Shown here piece after piece: positions 29,124-40,852 of a DNA stretch of 64,000 bases (its first letter is position 1; every line of letters begins with the position of its first letter). A program made the position numbers and the translations under genes. Source of the stretch: an uncultured Pseudohongiella sp. (lineage in GTDB: Bacteria; Pseudomonadota; Gammaproteobacteria; Pseudomonadales; Pseudohongiellaceae); assembly GCA_964343795.1 (NCBI GenBank), contig CAYFKD010000003.1:260669-324668 (forward strand), written 5' to 3'. The notes below the pieces were generated by a model. The model was not told the DNA's origin, made no database searches, and saw only the letters and a program-made list of their open reading frames with translations.

Positions 29124-30215
29124 ATGACTGAACACCACTGCGAACATCACCACCAGGAAGAACACCAGGCCCAGGGCCATGTTCCTTCCTGCCATGCCAA
29201 TATCGACAAGCCCGACTGGTTGCTACGCGCCTGCCTGATCGCAACGGTGGTTTTGTATGGCGGCCACTTCCTGTTCCTGGATTTCATCCCGGAGGGTTGG
29301 GCCATGATTCTGGCCCACTCTGTTTTCGAATTGATCAATACCATCTGGTGGGGCGTGGCCATCGGTATCCTGATGATCGCTGTACTGGGGCGCGTACCGC
29401 GGGAATTCGTGATGAGTGCCCTGGGCACGAAAACAGGACTTGGTGGCATCTGGCGCGCAACGTTCGCCGGTGTACTGCTGGATCTCTGCAGCCATGGCAT
29501 TCTCATGGTGGGTGCCAAACTTTATGAACGGGGTGCCAGTGCCGGGCAGGTGATGGCATTCCTGGTTTCCAGCCCGTGGAATTCCTTTTCCCTCACCCTC
29601 ATTCTCATCGCCCTGATTGGTTTGCCATGGACACTTGGCTTTATCGTGTTCTCCATGGTCATCGCGTTCATCACCGGACTGCTATTTGATCTTTGCGTAC
29701 GCCGCGGTGTGCTGCCGCAGAATCCCCAGCAGGTGGACCTGCCGGAAAACTTTCATTTCTGGTCCGCCGCCCGCGCCGGGCTGAAGGAAACAGAGTTCAG
29801 CGGCGCATTTATCTATGACGCGTTGAAATCCGGATTGAAAGAATCAAAGATGGTGGTGCGCTGGATTCTGTTCGGTGTATTACTGGCGAGCCTTGTGCGT
29901 GCCTTCGTACCACCGGAGGCCTTTGCGACTTATTTCGGTCCCACTCTCATGGGGCTCGTTGTCACCATCGGAGTGGCCACCATACTGGAAGTGTGCTCGG
30001 AAGGTTCCACCCCCATTGCCGCGGACATCCTGAACCGGGCCGGCGCGCCGGGTAATGCCTTTGCTTTTCTCATGGGCGGTGTCGCCACGGATTACACCGA
30101 GATCATGGTATTGAAGGATGCTACCCGCTCATTGAAGATGGCATTGTTCCTGCCATTGATCACCGTTCCCCAGGTGATCCTGCTGGGCTGGGTAATCAAT
30201 CTCGCCACCACCTGA
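29124..30215 (+). CDS. Permease (COG0701/DUF318-type) with a His/Cys-rich N-terminus
   Basis: 363-aa multi-TM protein with the N-terminus MTEHHCEHHHQEEHQAQGH. Confidence 0.7.
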   Translation: MTEHHCEHHHQEEHQAQGHVPSCHANIDKPDWLLRACLIATVVLYGGHFLFLDFIPEGWAMILAHSVFELINTIWWGVAIGILMIAVLGRVPREFVMSALGTKTGLGGIWRATFAGVLLDLCSHGILMVGAKLYERGASAGQVMAFLVSSPWNSFSLTLILIALIGLPWTLGFIVFSMVIAFITGLLFDLCVRRGVLPQNPQQVDLPENFHFWSAARAGLKETEFSGAFIYDALKSGLKESKMVVRWILFGVLLASLVRAFVPPEAFATYFGPTLMGLVVTIGVATILEVCSEGSTPIAADILNRAGAPGNAFAFLMGGVATDYTEIMVLKDATRSLKMALFLPLITVPQVILLGWVINLATT

Positions 30216-30223
30216 TTGACGCG

Positions 30224-30691
30224 TCAGTCTTCGCTCTCGTGAAGTATTTCCGTCATGCCCGCGCGGATGCGCTGGGTGGACACACTGACCTCGAACAGGA
30301 ACAGGATCAGTCCGGCGGTGACCAGGCACATGGCGGCTACAAACAATACCGCTACGATGGTAGCCAAATCGAAAGTGACTATCTCGCCGACGAACAGGGA
30401 CATGATCACCAGGCATACCAGCAGGGCACCGGTGACGAACATTCTCAGGGCCCAGTTAACCAGTCGAATGCGTTTCCACAACCCTTCGGTTTCCGATTGC
30501 AGCAGTGTGCGGTGTTCTTCGTGGGGCTCCTGGGCCATCCGGGTTTCCACCACCCGCGCCCGGTCCACGATGCGTCCCAGCCTGATGGACAGCACGTTGA
30601 GCATGCCGGCTATGCCCGCCAGCAGGAATACCGGCGCGACCGCCAGTTGAATGACCGCGGCAATGGATTCGATTGAAGTGGGGGCGTCCAC
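30224..30691 (-). CDS. DUF2721-like membrane protein
   Basis: Motif IQLAVAPVFLLAGIAGMLNVL. I propose a GTG start at 30691 so that the gene does not overlap the upstream gene. Confidence 0.5.
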   Translation of the reverse strand: MDAPTSIESIAAVIQLAVAPVFLLAGIAGMLNVLSIRLGRIVDRARVVETRMAQEPHEEHRTLLQSETEGLWKRIRLVNWALRMFVTGALLVCLVIMSLFVGEIVTFDLATIVAVLFVAAMCLVTAGLILFLFEVSVSTQRIRAGMTEILHESED

Positions 30692-30695
30692 CGGG

Positions 30696-31496
30696 TCAGG
30701 AGGCCGTCGCCCGAGCGTCCAGGTCCTTCCAGTGACGGGCGCCATTGCCGGGAGTGCGGGTGAGATTAATCCAGATCTCACCGGCTGCGATATTGGTTAC
30801 TCCCGCCATCCAGAAGGTTGTGCCGAACAGCACTTCGACGCCAATGCTGGTATTGGACATCAGTATTCCCAACATGACGCGTTCGGTGGCCACAGCAAGC
30901 ATCATGGCGAAACTGCGAATCATCCATTCCCGGTGCGCGCCGAAATTGCGCTGGCGTATGCGCGTGTAAGCCATGGTGAGGGCGAACAGGGTATACATGG
31001 CAAAGAAAGCGGTAGCCATGGATTCATTAAATCCCTGGCCGGTAATTTCCATGAAGGGATCCAGCACACCGATGATGCTGCCGGACAGGGCAGCAACAAA
31101 TCCACAGGCCAGCCACAGGCGTCCGGACCAGCGATGGAAGTTAATGTATTTCTTGCGGATTACCCGAATGAACTGCAACGGGCCGAGACAAAAGATGATC
31201 AAACCAGGAATCAGGTGTGCCCAGGTAGCCACGGGATTGCGTACGTATCGCCCATCGAAGGGATTAAATGTAGCGAGTGGATCGGTGAACTCCATGGACA
31301 TGGCCTCGCCCATGAAGACGGCGCGGCCCAAAATGGAAGTAAGCCCGGTCCACAGCAGGACCGCCACGATCAGCCACCCCAGGATTTCCACGGTCTTGCG
31401 AATCGCCGGCATGGGTGCGGCGGTAAAATCGGATTGCGCTGCTGCAGGCGCGTTTATTCCCGGTGCAGTCAGGTCAGTCATAGTATCCCCCTTCAA
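30696..31496 (-). CDS. DUF2306-like membrane protein
   Basis: 266-aa multi-TM ORF. The start may instead be MTDL at 31481. Confidence 0.55.
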   Translation of the reverse strand: MKGDTMTDLTAPGINAPAAAQSDFTAAPMPAIRKTVEILGWLIVAVLLWTGLTSILGRAVFMGEAMSMEFTDPLATFNPFDGRYVRNPVATWAHLIPGLIIFCLGPLQFIRVIRKKYINFHRWSGRLWLACGFVAALSGSIIGVLDPFMEITGQGFNESMATAFFAMYTLFALTMAYTRIRQRNFGAHREWMIRSFAMMLAVATERVMLGILMSNTSIGVEVLFGTTFWMAGVTNIAAGEIWINLTRTPGNGARHWKDLDARATAS

Positions 31497-31581
31497 TCAG
31501 ACTGGGCCTAGCTTAGCGTTTGGAACCTTAAAATTCTATCAGGCAGCAGAATAGTGCCCGGCACATTGTATTGGATTTTAC

Positions 31582-32094
31582 CTAATTGGATTCCGAGGAC
31601 TGTTCGATTCCCAGGCCTTGTTCGGCGGTATCAGACATGATCAGCAGGGAGAAATTGTAGACGCTGACCAATAACTGAAAGCTGATGGCCAGAACATACA
31701 TTTTCGCGGAAGGAAGGATTAGTAAAGCGCCGAGAAAATTTCCGAAGCAGATGCTGGCACCAAGCGGGAGCATGGCCCGGTGAACCAGGGAAGCGCGGAA
31801 CAGGCCGCCCCGGCTGAGGAAATACCAGATGTTAAGACCCATTATTGTAGCAACCACCAGGTTCCCGAAGCGCCAGGTGAGCTCGCGGTCGTCGAGAAAC
31901 ATAAAGAGCAGGTAGGGGAGCAGGGCCAGGAACATGGCCGAGATGCTGGCCCGCAGCATGGTCTGGAACTTGGTGATGCTCTCGCCTTCCCAGTCGCCGC
32001 GGCGGAATCGAAAAACCGCCACAATGCCGGTAAAGCCGGCCAGGGCAACGGCAAGCTCAGCGACGAGGGAAAGGTATTCCTGGTGTTCCAGCAT
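31582..32094 (-). CDS. Hypothetical membrane protein
   Basis: I take the start at MLEHQEYL (32094). The longer listed ORF would run into the tRNA promoter region. Confidence 0.5.
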   Translation of the reverse strand: MLEHQEYLSLVAELAVALAGFTGIVAVFRFRRGDWEGESITKFQTMLRASISAMFLALLPYLLFMFLDDRELTWRFGNLVVATIMGLNIWYFLSRGGLFRASLVHRAMLPLGASICFGNFLGALLILPSAKMYVLAISFQLLVSVYNFSLLIMSDTAEQGLGIEQSSESN

Positions 32095-32284
32095 AAGGAT
32101 AAGCTGAGTCTTTCTTCTATTAACCGGGTTAGCGGCACAATCACCTATATGCTTCAGTCCGCGGGCATGACCAACTCCCACCAAACCGCTATAATCTCGC
32201 CTCCAAAACCGGTGCCATAATCTATAATGGCGTGGAGGTTTTGGATCAGAGCCCTCGTTTCGCATCGATCCCGTAGCTCAGCTG

Positions 32285-32415
32285 GGTGAGGCTCGCGAAG
32301 TACGCAAAGCAAAGCTTTGCGCGAGCCGAACGACTCGCCATGGATGGCGAGGCTGGGGTAATTTAGGAGTGCTAATGTTGCGCCAGGGATGGCATGTAAG
32401 ATATCTATAGAATCA
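32285..32415 (+). repeat. Structured GGA-hairpin element, copy U1 (candidate CsrA/RsmA-binding RNA module or miniature insertion element)
   Basis: 131 nt, preceded by a decayed copy of tRNA-Arg positions 1-19 (32266-32284). Hairpins are CTCGCCA-TGGA-TGGCGAG (32333-32350) and GCCA-GGGA-TGGC (32381-32392). Confidence 0.8.
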
Positions 32416-32434
32416 CGCGCCCGTAGCTCAGCTG

Positions 32435-32565
32435 GGTGAGCATGAGCGCGATGGAAGCGATAGCTTCCAGCGAAATGCGAACGACCGGCCATGGATGGCC
32501 GGGCTGGTATTTAGAGAAGCACTGAAGTCGCGACAGGGATGTCAGGCAGGAAACTACAGAATCAC
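32435..32565 (+). repeat. Structured GGA-hairpin element, copy U2
   Basis: Exactly 150 bp after U1 and preceded by GCGCCCGTAGCTCAGCTGG (32416-32434, identical to the tRNA 5' end). Hairpins are CCGGCCA-TGGA-TGGCCGG (32484-32501) and GACA-GGGA-TGTC (32531-32542). Confidence 0.8.
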
Positions 32566-32642
32566 GCGCCCGTAGCTCAGCTGGATAGAGTAACTGGCTT
32601 CGAACCAGTTGGTCGGGAGTTCGAATCTCTCCGGGCGTGCCA
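32566..32642 (+). tRNA. tRNA-Arg (anticodon TCG)
   Basis: Hand-folded 77-nt cloverleaf: acceptor GCGCCCG/CGGGCGT, D arm GCTC/GAGT, anticodon stem ACTGG/CCAGT with loop CTTCGAA, T arm GGGAG-TTCGAAT-CTCTC, G73 and an encoded CCA. Confidence 0.9.
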
Positions 32643-32646
32643 AATG

Positions 32647-32675
32647 AAAAAGGGGAGCCAATGGCTCCCCTTTTT
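32647..32675 (+). terminator. Rho-independent terminator after tRNA-Arg
   Basis: AAAAGGGGAGCC-aa-GGCTCCCCTTTTT. Confidence 0.85.
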
Positions 32676-33069
32676 GTTTGGTATGGCTGGAGAATTGATT
32701 CGAACTCCAAAGTTCGACAAATTGCGTGAGCAATTTGGACGGCCGTAGGCCGCCCCGAAGGGGTGAGGAATTTGCGCCAACGCAAATTCTGAATCAATCT
32801 CTCCGGTGGAAGCCGAAGGCTTCCCGAACGGAGGCAGTGAAATGATCAAAGCCCCACTTAGCTAAGTTACTAGTTTATCAGTGTCCCCTGGATACTAGGC
32901 AGCGCAAGTTTGCCGCAATTTTTCCTAGTGATGTCAAATAATCCTCCAAGCTCTGGCCAGAAGTTATTGATGTAGAGGATAGTAGTTTCCAACGAGCGAA
33001 TAGTCATGTTAATCAAGATGACATGGCTAAAGGAAAAGTTTAGGGAAACTAACTTGGGGGAATGGATCT

Positions 33070-34260
33070 CTATAATTCAAGAAATGCCAGCTGCTTTTTA
33101 TTGAGCCTAGTAATATCTATGCCCGTTTTATTTAGTACATAAGATACAACGGAATCCCTGGTGTCTTTCATCATTTGTGACAACTTCTCAACATTTTCAC
33201 ATTCACTGTAAGTCAAAATGTAACTCTGTACAGTAGACTCGATGCGAGATAAGAATCGGGGGTACGTGATCCCTCTTCGTAGCAGATTATCGAAATCTTT
33301 ATAAGCTAACAGCTTTTCTTTGATTTTATTCGCCTGTGGAGTTGTGACCGTGAGACAATACTTCTTATTCTTTTTTCGCCGGCTAATCCCTTGCCCGAGA
33401 AACTCCGCAGTCTGTTCTGGAGTGTAGATTTTGGTCTTACTTCCATCTCCTAATGCGTGAATTTTTAGTTTCACTGACGCCAATAAGTCGGCACATGTAT
33501 CATGAATCAACTTGCAATCCTCTTCTGTTTTTGCGAAGGCTATTATGTCATCAGCATAGCGAATAATTTCGAACCCAGTAGACAGAAGCTCACTATCGAA
33601 ATCCCAAAGCAACAAATTAGCAAGGTATGGGGACAAAGGCATACCTTGCCTTAGGCCAACTCCATTTCGAATACCCATTGCTCGGATCTTCTTTCTATCT
33701 TCGAAAACACTCTGGTTTACCTCCGTATCAATAACGGCATCGAGAAGAGGGAACAATGACGATACCCTTAACTTCATCCGCAACTGCTCCTTGAGTACCT
33801 CGCGTGGAATCTTGTCGAAGAATGAAGAGATGTCAGCCTTGTAAACCCAGGGGTTATCATGTCGTTTCTTCACTGACGCTTTGAGAGCATCTTTTGCAGA
33901 CTTCCCGCGGATGAATCCATAACTGACAGGATTGTCGAAAGAATATTGACCATTACTTAGGAAGCGATACATTGCTCGTTGCACTAATCTATCGCGGATA
34001 AGAGGGATACAGATTAATCGCTCTGTACCTTCAGGTTTTGGAATAAAAACGGGCGTTAATGGACTGAACGTATAGCTGCCGCACCGGAGTAGCTTAGAGA
34101 TTTCTGAAATTTGAAGTTTCTTTGTTGCTTTAAATTCTGAAAGGGACATTCCACTAGAATCGTGAAATCCACGTACTCGAGTATTCGAGGCCCGGAACAT
34201 TTCCGCCCATTCGAATTCTAGAGAATCAATGGTTGAGAATTTCGAGAAAGCTGATGCCAA
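33070..34260 (-). CDS. Stand-alone reverse transcriptase (RT domain only; defence-associated or unclassified type)
   Basis: The 396-aa protein shows RT motifs 1-7: IPKPEGTERLICIP, RDRLVQRA, YGFIRGKS, KADISSFFDKI, LRQGMPLSPYLANLLL, RYADDIIAF, SKTKI, FLGQGI. The start is TTG, and there is no maturase or endonuclease domain. Confidence 0.85.
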   Translation of the reverse strand: MASAFSKFSTIDSLEFEWAEMFRASNTRVRGFHDSSGMSLSEFKATKKLQISEISKLLRCGSYTFSPLTPVFIPKPEGTERLICIPLIRDRLVQRAMYRFLSNGQYSFDNPVSYGFIRGKSAKDALKASVKKRHDNPWVYKADISSFFDKIPREVLKEQLRMKLRVSSLFPLLDAVIDTEVNQSVFEDRKKIRAMGIRNGVGLRQGMPLSPYLANLLLWDFDSELLSTGFEIIRYADDIIAFAKTEEDCKLIHDTCADLLASVKLKIHALGDGSKTKIYTPEQTAEFLGQGISRRKKNKKYCLTVTTPQANKIKEKLLAYKDFDNLLRRGITYPRFLSRIESTVQSYILTYSECENVEKLSQMMKDTRDSVVSYVLNKTGIDITRLNKKQLAFLEL

Positions 34261-34324
34261 TAGGAGTATTTCCTTTACTCATCGAAGCAACTAAGCCCCA
34301 GTTCGATGAGATTTATTGAACTGG

Positions 34325-34471
34325 CACCAAACGCGAAAACAGTACGCACTTCGTTATTCGCGTGACATCAATGGCGAACTTGCTGTAGCGAGAGCTCTCG
34401 CAATTTGGAACGCGCCAATGTTTAGGCTTTCTCGCAACCCGCGAAACTGCACATTGGTATGCGAAATACAC
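34325..34471. repeat. Direct repeat R, copy A (RT-proximal)
   Basis: Identical base-for-base to 34724-34870 (compared by hand). Confidence 0.95.
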
Positions 34472-34723
34472 GGCGCGATTCCAAATGAGAATGCTTATCA
34501 CTCGTATCAAGCTAAGACCGAAATCTCTCATGGCTAGAAGTACCTTAGGACTAAAGCCGCAGAGCATGGCTACGGTGCGTCGAAATTTGACTACTACCTC
34601 GACGAGCTTGACCAGCCGGCCAGCGCACTCCGATACCGCGGCTCCGCAGTCGATCGCGTGAAAGCCGTTGCCGGCCACCCTTGCTTCTGGGGCGAATGAC
34701 CGGACATCGACGCGTAACAAGAC

Positions 34724-34870
34724 CACCAAACGCGAAAACAGTACGCACTTCGTTATTCGCGTGACATCAATGGCGAACTTGCTGTAGCGAGAGCTCTCGC
34801 AATTTGGAACGCGCCAATGTTTAGGCTTTCTCGCAACCCGCGAAACTGCACATTGGTATGCGAAATACAC
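34724..34870. repeat. Direct repeat R, copy B (RT-distal)
   Basis: 147-bp perfect copy. The offset is 399 bp, which equals 133 codons. Confidence 0.95.
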
Positions 34871-34878
34871 CGACAATC

Positions 34879-34909
34879 ATTATGTAAGGCCTGGCCTAAA
34901 GATTTTCAA
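34879..34909 (-). promoter_or_regulatory. Putative sigma70 promoter driving the R-U-R RNA and the RT gene
   Basis: On the minus strand the sequence reads TTGAAA, 19 nt, CATAAT. The predicted start near 34872 is about 2 nt upstream of repeat B. Confidence 0.3.
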
Positions 34910-35088
34910 GGGTTTCTAACTATTCGAATGACTACATAGGATTGTTGGTCAATTATCGACCAGCCGTCAAGAACAGGAGTTCACGGCTAATGGCGACGAG
35001 AATTTTTCTGAAGTTTGGATAGTGTAGTAGCAGTTGTACTCAGCCCAACTCGATGTAGGCAATTTTGACTCAATTCTAGATTTAACCA

Positions 35089-35170
35089 AGGTCGCAAGTC
35101 ATTGATATCTATATAACTGCAATTTTTTAGAGCGAGATTCGAATCTTAGCAACCGAGATTGGACGGCCGT
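35089..35170. repeat. Internal module junction: degenerate right-end plus tRNA T-arm remnant plus left-end motif
   Basis: GGTCGCAAGTCATTGATATCTATATAACTGCAATTTT resembles 36946-36987. GAGATTCGAATCT is a T-arm remnant. AGCAACCGAGATTGGACGGCCGT resembles 32729-32746. Confidence 0.65.
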
Positions 35171-35521
35171 TCAATATTCGAATGGTTTCAGTGAATTGCA
35201 GTGGAAGCTGAAAAGCACTGATTCAAAATCTAGTAGAAAATATTTCTAGAAGGCTATGCAGGGGTCTAAAAAGATAAGTCGTGGCCAAGCTGGCCAAGAA
35301 GGATTATCGCTTAGAAGCAAGTATTCACATTCCTTTAGAATCCGGAAAATCTCTAGTTGGGATTTTTCCGAAAGATGCGCCTTGCCCACTAAAATAGTGG
35401 GAATTGTCCTACATACACGAGTTTCGTGGGGGTGTAATGTTCGTCTCCTTGGTGGTTGATTCCAAGATATTTATGGGTCCGCGAGAATCTTGTTTAGACT
35501 GGACGATTAAGGAGAACTCAA

Positions 35522-36127
35522 TTGAATTATAGAAGATGGCTTACATCAGTATTTGCTCTATTAGCATTTATAAATCCTACAATTAGCTTCGCACAGTGCT
35601 CGGTAAATCCATTGTCGTGGTTATGGTGGTCAAATCTAGGGGATGCAGAAGATCTAACTTCTGGCCCGGGCTCTTACCCTCAAACCTATACCTACTGGAT
35701 ACAATCGGGGGCAACCACATACTTAAATACGGACCTGGATGCTGGTTTAGGGCCTAATGGAGAAGGCGAAGTTACTTTCTTCAACACTGCAATGGGGCAG
35801 AATGGACCATTTGGATCGACAGAAGCTTGGTCCACTAGTGAAACGTGCCATGTCTGGATAGGTGGAAGAACCTACGATTCGGGGAATTGTAATACTACTA
35901 CCCAACGACCGATAAAAGGTCAGATTAGGTTAAATGATTCAATTCTTGCGAATCCATCATACATAGCTCTTGGGGCTCCTATGACAACGATTCAACATGA
36001 AACAGGGCACATATTCGGAATGGGACATAATGATTCCTGCACTTCATTTATGAAAACGAGCTTCGTGGCTGGATTGCCTTCAAGTTTGCAATTCTGGGAA
36101 GTTATTTGGATTAATGCAAATTATTAA
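35522..36127 (+). CDS. Secreted metzincin-like zinc metalloprotease
   Basis: Signal peptide and the HETGHIFGMGH motif (HExxHxxGxxH), with a downstream Met (SFM). The start is TTG after AAGGAG. Confidence 0.65.
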   Translation: MNYRRWLTSVFALLAFINPTISFAQCSVNPLSWLWWSNLGDAEDLTSGPGSYPQTYTYWIQSGATTYLNTDLDAGLGPNGEGEVTFFNTAMGQNGPFGSTEAWSTSETCHVWIGGRTYDSGNCNTTTQRPIKGQIRLNDSILANPSYIALGAPMTTIQHETGHIFGMGHNDSCTSFMKTSFVAGLPSSLQFWEVIWINANY

Positions 36128-36152
36128 TACTCAAATAAATAAGGGGAGAATT

Positions 36153-36812
36153 ATGAAATCATATATTTTCGTGCTAGTTCTACTGGTGCCTTTAGGGGCC
36201 GAAGTAAATCCTCTATATGCTCAAGGCATATCAGCTGACCAATTCATTTACTACATGGATTATTCAGCAGAAAACGGATGGATACCGGAGAGTATAGAAA
36301 CTATGGTGTCTACATCTCATATTATTGTGAAAGGCAGATTTGGCAATTTGATTAGTAATCAACCCTTTTGGGGTTATGGCGAATCTCGCGAGTCTTTTAT
36401 AGAAAAGTTAAATATATCGGATGAAGAAGCTGATCGCATGGCTATTCCTTTGAGTGAGTATGAAATAGTTATTGACGAGGTAGTTTTTGGAGACATTAAA
36501 TCCGATAAAATTGTCTACAGAGTCTTTGAGAGCTACCCTTCAGAAGAAGAAGAGCTTGATCAAAAGAAGTCTATTGAAAGACTTTTTTTCCTCAGACTGA
36601 ATGAGGATGGAGAAACATACTCGAGTATTGGGCAACCGTTTATTTTGGACAATATAGACGGTGAGTATAGCTTTTTAGCTCGTGGAAGATCGATAACTGA
36701 TACTTCTAGAAAGACTTTGCCATTTGTTGAAAGTATGCAGAAAGTCGCTTTTGAGCAGGCAATAAAACAAGAGGTTGCGAGACAAATGGCAGAAATCGGG
36801 CGAGCAAATTAA
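36153..36812 (+). CDS. Hypothetical secreted protein (partner of the metzincin)
   Basis: I take the start at MKSYIFVLVLL after AAGGGGAG. There is a signal peptide but no family I recognise. Confidence 0.6.
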   Translation: MKSYIFVLVLLVPLGAEVNPLYAQGISADQFIYYMDYSAENGWIPESIETMVSTSHIIVKGRFGNLISNQPFWGYGESRESFIEKLNISDEEADRMAIPLSEYEIVIDEVVFGDIKSDKIVYRVFESYPSEEEELDQKKSIERLFFLRLNEDGETYSSIGQPFILDNIDGEYSFLARGRSITDTSRKTLPFVESMQKVAFEQAIKQEVARQMAEIGRAN

Positions 36813-36992
36813 CATCCAATAAACAACGCTAAGAAGAAGCCATGCCGAATTGTTCACACTCTTGGTTCGAGTATCAATATGTAACAAAAAACCACTCTTT
36901 ATTGCTCATTGGAGATACCTATGAGTTAATTCTCAAATCAACCGAGATCGCAAATCATTGATATTCTAATAGCTGTAATTTTGTGGATACTC

Positions 36993-37070
36993 CTTCGAAC
37001 CAGTTGATCGGGAATTCGAATGTCTCCGGGCGTGCGAAACAAAAAGGGGAGCCAATGGCTCCCCTTTTTT
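36993..37070 (+). repeat. attR-like displaced 3' half of tRNA-Arg plus terminator copy
   Basis: Aligns with 32598-32675 with about five substitutions and one 1-nt indel, and it lacks CCA. Confidence 0.85.
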
Positions 37071-37083
37071 ATCCGCTCCAATT

Positions 37084-38883
37084 CTATCTCGGATCCTGCC
37101 CCCTCTCTCTTCGCTCCCTTACAGGCGCGGCCCGTGATGGCGCGGCCCGTGACGGTGCAGCTCGTGAGGGTGCTTCGGCCCTCCGCGGCGCTGCAGAAGG
37201 AGCCTGTCTCCGTGCCGGGGATGGTTGGCTTCTCCGCTGAGGAGGGGGTGCGCTCCGTGCCTGTCTTGGCTGGGAAATTTCACGTCTTCGTTCGGGAGGG
37301 GCCGAACGCTGGCTGCGCTGCGGTTGCACGCGGGCAGGTCTCGGTGAAGATTGCCTGATCGTGGGTTGAGCGGTAAGAGCTTGCCGGTTTTGAGGCTGGC
37401 TCGTTACGCGGCTACGGTTATTCTGACTGGATGCCGTGTTACGAGTGGTTCGCTGTCGGTTCGAACCCGAACGTTCCATCCTGTTACGAAAAGTGAATAC
37501 CGCCTCGGGCTGGCTCCTGTTACGTGCGCTTGCAGCGGATTCTTCGGTACTGGAGTTACCCTGGTTTACACCTGTGTTGTTTCTCCTGGGTGATGGTCTC
37601 GCGACCCTGTTACCGGACTGCCGGCGATCGCTACTGGATCGGGTCAGGTTGTCCGGCGCGGTTATTGCCGCCGTGTTGGTATCCGGCCCCAGGGAATTCG
37701 ACAATGAGCGGGCGCCATTGGTATTGGGTCGGCCGCTGCCCTGGCGCAGGCTGCGTTCCCGCGCGCTCGGATTCTGTCGGCCGGCGCCGCTCAGTGCGGC
37801 AAGGTTTGAGTTCGACGCATTGCTGCGGTACTGGCCGTAGCTGCCGCGATTGCGCAGTGCTTCATCGAAGCGTTCGCGGGCCGGTGAGCTGTTGGCGTAG
37901 TAGTCGCGATAGCTGGAACTGTTCGGGCGTGATCCACTGTGGCGTTGCGGCCGCCAGTAACTGCCATAACGGTTCTTGTCCCGCACTTCCCGAAAACTGT
38001 TGTTGACGTAGTGACGGTTAAAACTGGCGATGGTTGGGCGCCGGTAGTGGTGGTACCCGAAGTCATAGTAGTGACCATAGTACGGGTGATGGTGGTAGCT
38101 GTGGTGAAAAACGCCCAGGTAATGATCCGACCAGTGTATGGAAAATGCCGTCGTGACGCCCCAGAAAAAACCGGAGTGAAAGTGATAGCCTCGCGGGTAG
38201 GGATAGTAGTACACGGGGCGGGGCCGGGGGTAATAGTGGTAGACCGCAACGGGCTGTTCCACGATGACTTCCTCGACTACGTAATAAGGAACATAGACTA
38301 CTTTTTCATCCACCGGTGTAATTTCGATGGTTTCTTCCGTAACCAACACGTTCTGGTATTCATCCGAAACCAGGTTGCCGGCGGCATGGGCGCGCGCCCG
38401 GAATGACTCCACTGCCGCCAGCACATCGGTTTGCTGTGCAATCACCGCTTCACCCAGCTGCCAGGTGGATTCGATTTCTTCATTCATTAGCAACAGAATT
38501 TCCGGATAGTTGAGCAGGGCAATGATGGATTCATCCCAGGATTCATCGGGGGTGAGATCGGGATCGGTTTCAAGCTGCTCAAGAAACCGCGCCGCCAGGA
38601 CAATTTCCAGGGGATAGGTGGAGGCGGGCAGGATGATGGCCAGCAGGTCATCCGGCTGTAGCGCATAAGGGCCAACCAACTGCTCAAGCTCGGCAGCCGT
38701 GTAGAGGATTACCGCGGGATCAGGATCTATGGGTTGCTGTGCCGTGGTCGAGATGATTTCCAGCGGGTTGCCGTCGGCGTCCACTGGTGTCTGAGCGCCT
38801 ACAGATCCGCAACCCATTAAAAGGAGTAACGGAAAACACAGTAAGCTTCTGAAAAAGCGAAGGATTGCTGATTTCCTGGTCAT
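37084..38883 (-). CDS. DUF3300-like lipoprotein with a long low-complexity C-terminal tail
   Basis: Lipobox LLMGC and the N-terminal motif LLAIILPASTYPLEIVLAARF. The C-terminal half or so is rich in S, R, N, P and Q and ends in APSRA repeats. Confidence 0.7.
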   Translation of the reverse strand: MTRKSAILRFFRSLLCFPLLLLMGCGSVGAQTPVDADGNPLEIISTTAQQPIDPDPAVILYTAAELEQLVGPYALQPDDLLAIILPASTYPLEIVLAARFLEQLETDPDLTPDESWDESIIALLNYPEILLLMNEEIESTWQLGEAVIAQQTDVLAAVESFRARAHAAGNLVSDEYQNVLVTEETIEITPVDEKVVYVPYYVVEEVIVEQPVAVYHYYPRPRPVYYYPYPRGYHFHSGFFWGVTTAFSIHWSDHYLGVFHHSYHHHPYYGHYYDFGYHHYRRPTIASFNRHYVNNSFREVRDKNRYGSYWRPQRHSGSRPNSSSYRDYYANSSPARERFDEALRNRGSYGQYRSNASNSNLAALSGAGRQNPSARERSLRQGSGRPNTNGARSLSNSLGPDTNTAAITAPDNLTRSSSDRRQSGNRVARPSPRRNNTGVNQGNSSTEESAASARNRSQPEAVFTFRNRMERSGSNRQRTTRNTASSQNNRSRVTSQPQNRQALTAQPTIRQSSPRPARVQPQRSQRSAPPERRREISQPRQARSAPPPQRRSQPSPARRQAPSAAPRRAEAPSRAAPSRAAPSRAAPVRERRERGQDPR

Positions 38884-39136
38884 CGGTCGCCCCCTTACCG
38901 ATTCAATCGGTGTTTTTTCCTAGGGTCAACTCTATTAGGGGGAAGCTGAACACCAGCTTAAGCAAAGATGGCAGGGAAGGCTTGTTAAACAGACCCGGTG
39001 GCAATGGGTAAATCATTCAGCATGGATTCAGTTCTTCCCCCTTAACTTCACACTCCAGGAGCGAAGTTTTCGGCATTGCCAGTTCGCACCAACTTGATTG
39101 CATTATCCCTGTAAGGATTATGAAAAGGGGGAAACC

Positions 39137-39517
39137 ATGAAAAAACTGATGTTCATACTCGTTCTGGCCATAGGTGCACCGCAGGCGATTGCCGACGCCA
39201 GCAATACTATTACCTGGGAAGTATTCGGGTTGCGTGTTGGCGGTGCTTTCGTTGACTACATTGACCTGGATGTTGAAATTGGTAATAACTACGTGCACAT
39301 GTACGGTGCGCTGGATTTTAACGACGGGTTTTCAACACCGGCTAACGGATCCTGTTTTTTCCCCAGCGGAAATAGTTTCCTGTTTTGCAATCTAAGCGTT
39401 GGTGAGAATTCGGTCGTATTGTCAATCGATGACGACTTTCACGGCACGGTGGAATCACTGGATGCCGACGGCTTTTTTGAAGACGAAGGTTTCCTGACCT
39501 TTCTCGGTATTCTCTAG
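39137..39517 (+). CDS. Hypothetical small secreted protein
   Basis: I take the start at MKKLMFILVLAIG after AAGGGGGA. It has a signal peptide. Confidence 0.6.
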   Translation: MKKLMFILVLAIGAPQAIADASNTITWEVFGLRVGGAFVDYIDLDVEIGNNYVHMYGALDFNDGFSTPANGSCFFPSGNSFLFCNLSVGENSVVLSIDDDFHGTVESLDADGFFEDEGFLTFLGIL

Positions 39518-39608
39518 CAGTTGATACCGGGGTTCAGGAACTGGAGCCAGGGTAGAAATACAGCGATGCGTTTTTACTCTGGCTCCTTTTGTGTTCCAAT
39601 GGGGCGCC

Positions 39609-39890
39609 ATGAAATTCGCTATACCCACCAGCCTGCTCTGTATCCTGCTCGGCGCCTGTGCCGTTGATGAGAACAGGATTTACCCCAACGCCATGACTAA
39701 CGAAGAAATCGTGGCCTACAACGAGACCCAGGACCGCATCTGGGATCGCATCTACTGCCTGGAGGATGTGCGAATCGATTCCCGCATCCGCAAACGTTAC
39801 TGTGCCACCTTGACCGAGCTGCGCCGGCGCAACATCTCGGCCGAACAGATGAACAACATCAACTTCGGCACAACGGGCCTGTTTCGCTAA
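39609..39890 (+). CDS. Hypothetical lipoprotein
   Basis: MKFAIPTSLLCILLGAC lipobox. Confidence 0.55.
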   Translation: MKFAIPTSLLCILLGACAVDENRIYPNAMTNEEIVAYNETQDRIWDRIYCLEDVRIDSRIRKRYCATLTELRRRNISAEQMNNINFGTTGLFR

Positions 39891-39891
39891 T

Positions 39892-39963
39892 AAAAAGGGG
39901 ACGGAGGGATTTATTTTTGATCAATCAGCACTGATCAATAATAAATCCCTCCGTCCCCTTTTT
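39892..39963. terminator. Long bidirectional terminator palindrome
   Basis: Perfect 24-bp arms AAAAAGGGGACGGAGGGATTTATT (39892-39915) and their reverse complement (39940-39963). The arms include A- and T-runs, and the element lies between convergent genes. Confidence 0.8.
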
Positions 39964-40852
39964 AGTCCGCGATCATCGGCGCGCGCTTACTGCCCGCCTT
40001 CTTCGCTTCCGCCTGGGTTCGGCGCCGTTCTTCGCCCAGTTGAGCCAGGTGATCCCGGTTGTTGTCATCAACCCGGGCATAGGCATCGCGCCAACTTTCG
40101 TCATCGCTCCATATATAAGGAAGCCGTTTAACGGTTTTTGGACCCTTCGCTTCTTCGAAGAGCTGCAAGGCCCGGCGGGCTATGTCCAGTTGCATGGCCT
40201 CGTCCCAGGGTTTGCCACTGGGGTTGCCAAGGGGGAAATCCAGGTGCAGGTAGCGGGGCACGCCACAGTACTCAACAATATCCAAGGCGGAACCGTTAAT
40301 CACCGTCGGCATGCCGTTGGCTTCCAGGTGGCGGGCGACCAGACTCACGGTCTGGTGACAGACAGGTCACAAGGGCACCAGCAGGGCAATATCTGCTTTG
40401 TCCTCCCGGCAGCGCTGGAGTATCTCCGGTGCATCTTCTTTCACGGTGGCGCGCTGGCTGTACTCGGTAGGAACGGAATGGAAGCGGGGAGCGACATTGC
40501 CAAGCATTCCTTCTTCCACCAGTTGATTCAGTTGGCGCAGGGGCAGGAAGGAATTCACGTCCCGGGTGTGGGTGGCTTCCTTGTCCCAGGACAGCTCATC
40601 GGTATACATGGATGCCGGTATGGGAGAGACTGGCGTGGAATAAACGCGTCGCTCCGCATGCCCTTGGGGAGTATCGGGCATGGCGGTGGTGATTACGACG
40701 AGTCTGGATTCGGCTACGGGCTTGTCCAGCGGCTGAAACGGGGTCTCATCGAAATGGGCCCACTGGTAATCCACGGTATAACCCTGGGCGCGGTAATAAT
40801 CCCGGGTCCGTTCCATGTAGGGCACATCGTAGGCGTTGGTCATATTCAGCAA
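39962..40852 (-). CDS. GrdB-family (glycine/sarcosine/betaine reductase component B-like) protein with in-frame TGA, candidate selenoprotein
   Basis: The two listed ORFs (40367-40852 and 39962-40348) are in the same frame and are separated only by a TGA at 40367-40369. Read-through gives LLVPL-U-PVCHQTVSLVARH. Confidence 0.7.
40338..40356 (-). other. SECIS-like hairpin
   Basis: The mRNA reads ACCAGAC-CGUGA-GUCUGGU. The stem starts 10 nt after the UGA and the apical loop contains a G. Confidence 0.55.

Follow-up and report, generated by a model that had tools for sequence, protein, structure and literature searches.

A composite integrase-less islet at tRNA-Arg(TCG) of a Pseudohongiella genome and the integrative element family to which it is tied

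Cis-mobilizable elements (CIMEs) have lost their integration genes and kept their att sites, and they occur stacked at the 3' part of the target gene (review PMC5704250). Tycheposons of Prochlorococcus are elements with a tyrosine recombinase that reside at tRNA genes and have partial tRNAs on their flanks; older insertions are displaced inward by later ones, and decayed copies build up variable islands with defence and niche genes (bioRxiv 10.1101/2020.12.28.424599). A precedent of another kind is the defence-associated reverse transcriptase DRT2, which generates a never-ending open reading frame (neo) by rolling-circle reverse transcription (Tang 2024; Wilkinson 2024). Here we describe an islet behind a tRNA-Arg gene of an uncultured Pseudohongiella sp. 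(assembly GCA_964343795.1). The window, i.e. the whole stretch analysed, comprises 64,000 nt of contig CAYFKD010000003.1 (positions 260,669 to 324,668), and coordinates without a prefix refer to it. The islet is a composite, integrase-less structure that is real, well delimited and of a known kind, and it is now tied to a parent element family. We put at about 0.8 the probability that it consists of two CIME-like derivatives in tandem, both without an integrase and both descended from a family of small site-specific integrative elements with tRNA-Arg as their target.

Boundaries, arms and internal junction of the islet

The target of integration is the tRNA-Arg(TCG) gene at 32566-32642 (plus strand; Rfam tRNA, 65 bits), the sole tRNA detected by ARAGORN in the window. 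A repeat running from its anticodon loop through the terminator hairpin brackets an insert of ~4.3 kb. The left copy (attL, 32598-32675, plus strand) comprises a 27-nt core at 32599-32625 (TTCGAACC...GTTCGAA, anticodon loop to T loop), the remaining tRNA and the terminator hairpin (32647-32675). In the right copy (attR, 36993-37070, plus strand) the core has 2 mismatches and the 3' half of the tRNA is in decay, while the terminator is intact. The copies match at 72 of 79 positions (91%, two 1-nt gaps), and their first 14 nt and 29-nt terminators are identical; the flanking repeat with a few substitutions reported in a preliminary description of this DNA is thus confirmed, as is the AT-richness of the DNA that it encloses. 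GC content is 0.423 at 32841-36992, compared with 0.552 +/- 0.031 in same-sized windows of the 3.5-Mb genome (~4 standard deviations (SD) lower), and only 1.5% of the genome windows are as low. The open reading frames (ORFs) of the islet are a reverse transcriptase (RT) gene, a terminally redundant unit next to it (R-U-R), a protease-like gene and the partner of the latter. A promoter scan gave no more sites than expected by chance.

The islet thus resembles a CIME in being bounded by attL and attR, with a further, decayed copy inside (35138-35167), and in containing neither integrase nor transfer genes. No PF00589 match was found in it, and tblastn with the cognate integrase of related elements (see below) returned nothing, in agreement with the preliminary description. 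A search of the whole genome for a matching tyrosine integrase was likewise without a cognate: its only two PF00589 matches lie elsewhere, one being a Xer-like gene on contig C2 and the other a weak match on C4 near a tRNA-Ser (positions in this genome are written as contig:coordinate). The best match to the integrase of a complete related element (G106:C5 type) is 40 bits, to the Xer-like gene. The islet should therefore now be fixed, unless a related element supplies the enzyme. At C4:157816-163088, an ORF of 402 aa that matches integrases weakly (35 bits) lies ~2.6 kb beyond a tRNA-Ser(TGA), and a neighbouring gene is 50% identical to one beyond the island of the congener G018; this region is probably another small island.

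Comparison of the DNA upstream of all partial cores in relatives revealed an arm family of ~130 nt, the most constant part of which, CCAAGGCCGCAAGTCATTGATTT, starts 46 nt before the core. Arms were found in at least 10 congeners (among them G106, on contigs C29, C143, C21 and C5; G077, on C120, C133 and C50; G098; G044; G122; G108; G079; G080; G095), and there they always sit just before the core. When a profile built from the relatives' arms only was run over the whole 3.5-Mb genome of the window, the top match was the internal junction of the islet (35016-35127, E = 7e-8). We assign 35016-35137 (plus strand), which aligns with the arms of 9 relatives, as the right-end arm of module 1. The right-end arm of module 2 (36865-36992, plus strand) is a diverged member of the same family, with the motif TCGCAAATCATTGATAT 46 nt ahead of the core; the relatives-only profile matches it over its full length but weakly (36865-36983, E = 3.3 genome-wide). 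Its best local match within the islet is 35049-35131, with a score of 36 compared with 14.8 +/- 1.7 for shuffled sequence (12 SD), and the right and internal arms are 74% identical over 58 nt. The internal junction had been described as repeating the DNA that precedes the right repeat, and it does so over a longer stretch than was claimed. The 17-nt arm motif, used as sole search handle with 2 mismatches allowed, was too loose to be informative.

The distance between arm and core is the same at both junctions and in the relatives: 46 nt from the arm motif at 35092 to TTCGAA at 35138, and 46 nt from 36948 to 36994 at the right end. Since this register is kept at 35138, GAGATTCGAATCT at that position represents the decayed anticodon-loop start of an att core and not the decayed T arm for which it had been taken. 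The internal core (35138-35170, plus strand) matches at 17/30 positions and includes the 12-nt TTGGACGGCCGT, which is also present in the local copy of a structured repeat.

This repeat accounts for the left end of the islet, where an inverted copy of the tRNA 3' end and a dispersed structured repeat occupy 32676-32808 (plus strand), DNA that is native-like and not specific to the islet. According to DNA searches of the window's own genome and of 40 relatives, the repeat spans about 32689-32808 and has at least 5 further copies in the own genome (C3:667722, C3:674520, C4:219658, C6:143548 and C7:1322); the relatives' genomes hold copies as well. The copy at C3:674520 sits behind a tRNA-Arg(ACG), and that at C4:219658 behind a tRNA-Ser. 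The repeat consists of four hairpins and attaches at tRNA T loops (TTCGA...GAATC); in relatives (L052, L054, L055, L058, L062, L068) it often comes directly after the attR core, in place of the tRNA T stem. In four genomes (G024, G008, G003, G023) the terminator and the structured repeat directly follow tRNA-Arg, and no arm was found in these four. The segment 32686-32712, previously considered a T-arm scar, proved to be the inverted tRNA 3' end within this repeat region, and its pairing with the end of the tRNA gives a long hairpin that encloses the terminator. As for the proposed left-end motif AGCAA..TTGGACGGCCGT, its 12-nt counterpart at 35159-35170 is genuine, but the motif is part of the dispersed repeat and not specific to the islet. 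Because the motif belongs to a separate repeat family, the shared left-end sequence is of no use as evidence for accretion. With 32689-32808 assigned to the dispersed repeat, the compositionally foreign DNA begins near 32810-32840.

Parent elements and the origin of the tandem

The 27-nt core is found in at least two same-strand copies, kilobases apart, in eight congeners (G018, G023, G108 with four copies, G106, G144, G122, G132 and G095), and several arms or cores form arrays in G098, G106, G108 and G023. The 6.9-kb core interval of G018 contains a tyrosine integrase and a Rep_trans gene. G023 has two core intervals without an integrase, one with Fic and the other with HD and Lon-like genes.

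Complete elements of the arm family have a common order: tRNA-Arg, a convergent tyrosine integrase gene 30-80 nt away, a Rep_trans-like gene, a few kilobases of cargo and finally, at the far end, the ~130-nt arm, which is separated by about 22 nt from a tRNA copy that starts at the anticodon loop. In G106:C5, tRNA-Arg(TCG) is followed by a convergent gene for a 352-aa tyrosine integrase (PF00589, 107 bits), a weak Rep_trans-like ORF, three ORFs without assigned function and the arm, which lies 6 kb from the tRNA. An integrase 93% identical to this one abuts tRNA-Arg(TCG) at a contig end in G013, and integrases 60-65% identical sit at tRNA-Arg(ACG); at four such loci (L068, L079, L083, L088) arm-like sequence is found at the far end, 4-9 kb away. 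The arm family is therefore common to the window and to integrase-bearing elements (G106:C5 and these four loci), which is the relatedness of att sites that is expected between a CIME and its parent. Among 80 loci of this integrase clade in GTDB genomes, the gene lies 23-170 nt from the tRNA 3' end in nearly all, with Arg, Ser, Phe, Lys, Pro and Met tRNAs among the targets; the G106:C5-type clade is an ordinary tRNA-targeting integrase family. More distant relatives of the integrase (<=55% identity) are common at prophage contig ends.

Arm-bearing intervals without an integrase, i.e. without a PF00589 match on the contig that carries them, recur in the congeners. They include a 3.5-kb interval with a CBASS operon (cyclic-oligonucleotide-based anti-phage signalling system) and a DEDDh exonuclease in G095, a 2.1-kb interval with a Fic/PDC-S24 gene in G077, a 6.2-kb interval in G122, an interval with a metallopeptidase-like gene in G106:C29, and units of 1.3-1.8 kb in G098:C14. 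One of the latter, an arm-bounded 1.3-kb cassette, carries a folD gene that is split into two ORFs by a frameshift or stop (L071, 3506-4352).

The core in tRNA-Arg(TCG) is also the target of another element family, unrelated to the first (L026, i.e. G018:C2:1173791-1180730, and L053, i.e. G106:C212). It has a weak-scoring tyrosine integrase of 344-351 aa, a Rep_trans gene (PHROG 453) and a different attR arm, which contains GGGACA and ends in ATCAGGC; in G106 its element and further modules form a tandem. Because its attR arm is of this different family, the integrase of the G018 type (344 aa, weak PF00589) was rejected as parent of the islet.

Tandem accretion at one att site, with an integrase lost or acting in trans, as envisaged in the preliminary description, is supported by these data, because each module terminates in an arm of this family with the 46-nt spacing to the core preserved, and because in congeners this arm is the far end of elements with a tyrosine integrase at tRNA-Arg. 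The recurrence of arm-bearing intervals without PF00589 adds to the support for accreted elements that lost the integrase. Two elements, or their cargo ends, would have entered the same core successively, with the later arrival adjacent to the tRNA. Loss of the integrase and Rep portions would have left cargo, arm and core twice: module 1 (about 32.84-35.14 kb) would retain the RT system and module 2 (about 35.17-36.99 kb) a secreted metalloprotease-like pair.

Several observations weigh against this reconstruction. Taken alone, the right arm falls short of genome-wide significance (E = 3.3). Decay has gone further in the internal core than in the outer one, the reverse of what a simple age order predicts. 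The DNA to the right of the left repeat copy looks native up to ~32808, yet lies on the element side of the crossover, so that the foreign left edge (~32810-32840) is not the crossover point. Neither a left-arm sequence nor a fragment of an integrase pseudogene was found in the islet. Lastly, no empty site and no strain with a single module was found at tRNA-Arg among 40 relatives searched by DNA comparison and 133 congeners searched with the core pattern and arm; all of these are other species, with flanks ~68% identical. The same arrangement as in the window, 99.9% identical, is present in twin metagenome contigs (L036 and L037).

A different view of the modules is that they are working cassettes without an integrase: arm plus core would suffice as a site for the enzyme, and a master element passing through would act in trans to excise the cassettes as circles and insert them again, in an integron-like manner. 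As the integrase gene of complete elements ends 30-80 nt from the tRNA, there is hardly any room for a second non-coding arm, and a one-armed attP is thus plausible. Arms are also 80-93% identical between species whose flanking genes are ~68% identical, arm modules without an integrase fragment outnumber complete elements, G098:C14 and G106:C29 have arrays of 1.3-2 kb units, and G077, G098, G044 and G122 have arms and no cognate integrase. Many of these genomes, however, are incomplete metagenome-assembled genomes, so that a missing integrase counts for little; neither circles nor empty sites were seen, nor identical cassettes at more than one location, and the badly decayed internal core (17/30) and the diverged right arm of the window look like fossils. 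We consider working cassettes an unlikely explanation of the islet. Even less can be said for a flanking repeat created without any integrase, by small structured repeats that duplicate tRNA ends upon insertion. The copy at C4:219658 is indeed flanked by a duplicated tRNA-Ser 3' end and terminator, but such duplications start at the T loop, whereas that of the islet starts at the anticodon loop, like the attR of integrase-bearing elements, and is preceded by an arm at the canonical 46-nt distance; this origin is highly improbable.

The composite might also have been assembled elsewhere and have come in as a single block. Homologous exchange of the variable region behind tRNA-Arg could have brought it, or a pre-accreted tandem could have been excised and integrated, and CIME-ICE tandems (ICE, integrative and conjugative element) are documented to transfer as a single unit (PMC5704250). 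The right flank bears on this question. The gene next to the islet encodes a DUF3300 protein (37084-38883, minus strand; PF11737, 1.6e-46) and is accessory in the genus, being present in 9/80 congeners and never adjoining tRNA-Arg there. The genes that follow tRNA-Arg in G006, G002 and G003 correspond to C7:11734-19252 in the own genome, with their conserved right-hand gene at C7:17936-19252. There is therefore a rearrangement at the tRNA, or a variable region of larger extent, and the variability of the DNA to the right of the tRNA is compatible with the arrival of a block, as is the occurrence of one and the same local form of the structured repeat (GGACGGCCGT) at both junctions. On the other hand, no donor and no second copy of the composite was found. 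We regard arrival as one block as a possible course of events, if not the favoured one; it would alter only the place of accretion and not the nature of the structure as a tandem of CIME-like derivatives.

The accretion of derivatives of a defined family has several implications. The islet accounts for a strain-specific block of accessory DNA in this genome, and it shows tRNA-Arg(TCG) to be a hotspot of gene capture across the genus. The parents are traced to integrase-plus-Rep elements of 5-9 kb with a ~130-nt arm, which makes mobilisation in trans testable with defined parts. Anti-phage genes (CBASS, Fic, RT) are frequent in the modules, so that the arm could be of use as a handle in searches for small defence cassettes, aimed at marine Gammaproteobacteria.

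Cargo of the two modules

The cargo is distributed as proposed earlier, with an RT system in module 1 and a gene with a protease motif plus a partner in module 2. The RT gene lies at 33070-34260 (minus strand; RVT_1, 9e-29). To judge from its sequence, the enzyme is group-II-intron-like: its best PDB matches are Cas6-RT-Cas1, the GsI-IIC RT and G2L4. It is not the RT of a group II intron, since it scores 177 bits on TIGR04416, below the cut-off of 300, and intron RNA (domains V/VI) is missing; no intron RNA family was found in 30000-40000, even at E <= 1. UG17/DRT10 systems consist of an RT, a SLATT effector and a short structured non-coding RNA (10.64898/2026.04.29.721553). RT_UG17 is only the second-best PADLOC match (131 bits), and as the RT is without a SLATT partner gene the system is not UG17/DRT10 proper. 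DRT2 (NF041746, 47 bits compared with a cut-off of 390) and a retron were rejected as well. No homologue of the RT was found in 132 congeners searched. The DNA of the islet is therefore accessory. Elsewhere, RT homologues adjoin restriction-modification, GmrSD and Fic genes. The closest relative (68% identity) is on a Logan contig (L033:1553-3265); there a further RT gene (570 aa) comes next, with a copy of the structured repeat beyond it.

Upstream of the RT gene lies the R-U-R unit (34313-34876, minus strand), which is terminally redundant and open in the frame of the RT sense strand. Its R copies (34325-34471 and 34724-34870) form a perfect direct repeat of 147 nt with a period of 399 nt. 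The unit is a family-wide feature (loci L034, L035, L064-L066 and L238-L317): it lies upstream of the RT in six homologous genome loci and in 39/50 metagenome loci with enough upstream DNA, 36 of which are distinct. In these 36, R is 99-159 nt long, its two copies are 95-100% identical within a locus, the RT-proximal copy ends 43-86 nt before the RT start, and the period, 303-417 nt, is always divisible by 3. The sense frame is stop-free around the circularised unit in all 36, compared with 2.8% of shuffled units, and the antisense is open in 7/36. The R copies stay alike within a locus although the loci have diverged to ~50% nucleotide identity. In five loci the stop of the ORF overlaps the RT start. 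The frame shows only a weak and mixed bias by codon position and little conservation of its translations, and a search for a conserved RNA fold in R gave none.

Differences between the two R copies of a locus are almost confined to one cluster of 2-4 nt just after a conserved GGC; in 19 other aligned loci the RT-proximal copy reads GGCA at this point. In the window both copies are of the distal type (GGCGCGT; site 34410-34413), whereas the 99.9%-identical twin contigs (L036:1495-1641; L037:251-397) have GGCAAAG in the proximal copy. In light of the twins, the perfect identity of R in the window may be due to gene conversion or to assembly collapse, and inactivation could also be its cause. A diversity-generating retroelement, in which TR and VR repeats differ at template adenines and VR forms the 3' end of a target gene, was rejected because the mismatches are not adenine-specific (only 58/144 have A in the RT-proximal copy) and are limited to the single 2-4-nt cluster, and because the ORF starts at the first R copy.

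We tentatively propose that the RT would copy an R-U-R RNA and, on reaching the R at its 5' end, switch to the one at its 3' end, giving head-to-tail complementary DNA, and that the unit may thus be a candidate for a new defence-type system; at present this is conceivable rather than probable. Template jumping between the R copies would yield a never-ending sense ORF with 101-139 codons per turn. An open alternative is a real upstream gene, the terminal repeats of which are kept identical by RT-mediated conversion. If the proposal is true, the logic of DRT2 and neo would recur in another RT lineage with a retrovirus-like R for the jump, and the islet would be merely its vehicle. The RT cargo is the more unusual part of the islet and worth separate pursuit.

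Module 2 encodes two putative secreted proteins on the plus strand. The first (35522-36127; 201 aa) is a metzincin-like orphan with an HExxHxxGxxH zinc-protease motif, which reads HETGHIFGMGH and is conserved in the sole homologue (47% identity) among 5.8 billion proteins. Its tentative assignment to the metzincins, which combine this zinc site with a Met-turn and a characteristic fold, is based on the motif and on a Pfam match below cut-off (Reprolysin_5, E = 0.0034); PDB matches are weak and confined to the motif region, and the AlphaFold 2 model has a predicted local distance difference test (pLDDT) score of 28. The second (36153-36812; 219 aa) matched no family in domain and family profile searches. 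A partner gene also adjoins that of the protease-like homologue, and the pair occurs together in two Logan contigs, at 47% and 42% identity. The protease-like protein and the metallopeptidase-like cargo of G106:C29 are not related.

Comparison with known systems

The islet is closest to the CIMEs and accretion products of the ICESt1/ICESt3 type (Pavlovic 2004; Bellanger 2011), with which it shares an integrase-less, att-bounded stack beside, or instead of, a complete element. The parents of CIMEs are conjugative, whereas those of the islet are integrase-plus-Rep elements of only 5-9 kb; the islet's family has only one evident conserved arm, and its mobilisation is putative. Tycheposons are alike in layout, with stacked elements and remnants at tRNA genes. 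They belong to a different host phylum, and the elements of the islet's family are smaller and carry a Rep_trans-like gene.

Integron cassette arrays offer a likeness of another sort: small, promoter-poor units of cargo, each with a conserved recombination site, arrayed at a site of tyrosine-recombinase action. An integron has an IntI-type integrase with attI beside it and cassettes bounded by attC. Identification as an integron was rejected, as there is no IntI, and the integrase of the family scores 33 bits on TIGR02249 (cut-off 265) and none lies near the array. Furthermore, integrons recombine at a folded attC, whereas the site of the islet is a tRNA core plus duplex arm, and in this genome the array is not beside an integrase.

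For the cargo of module 1 alone, the comparison is with DRT2: both have, upstream of the RT, a non-annotated unit that is stop-free head to tail throughout the family. The RT lineages differ, and the period is 303-417 nt in the family of the islet versus about 120 nt in DRT2. Where DRT2 relies on a 3-nt jump signal, the family of the islet, as far as its sequences tell, has a genome-encoded terminal redundancy of 99-159 nt.

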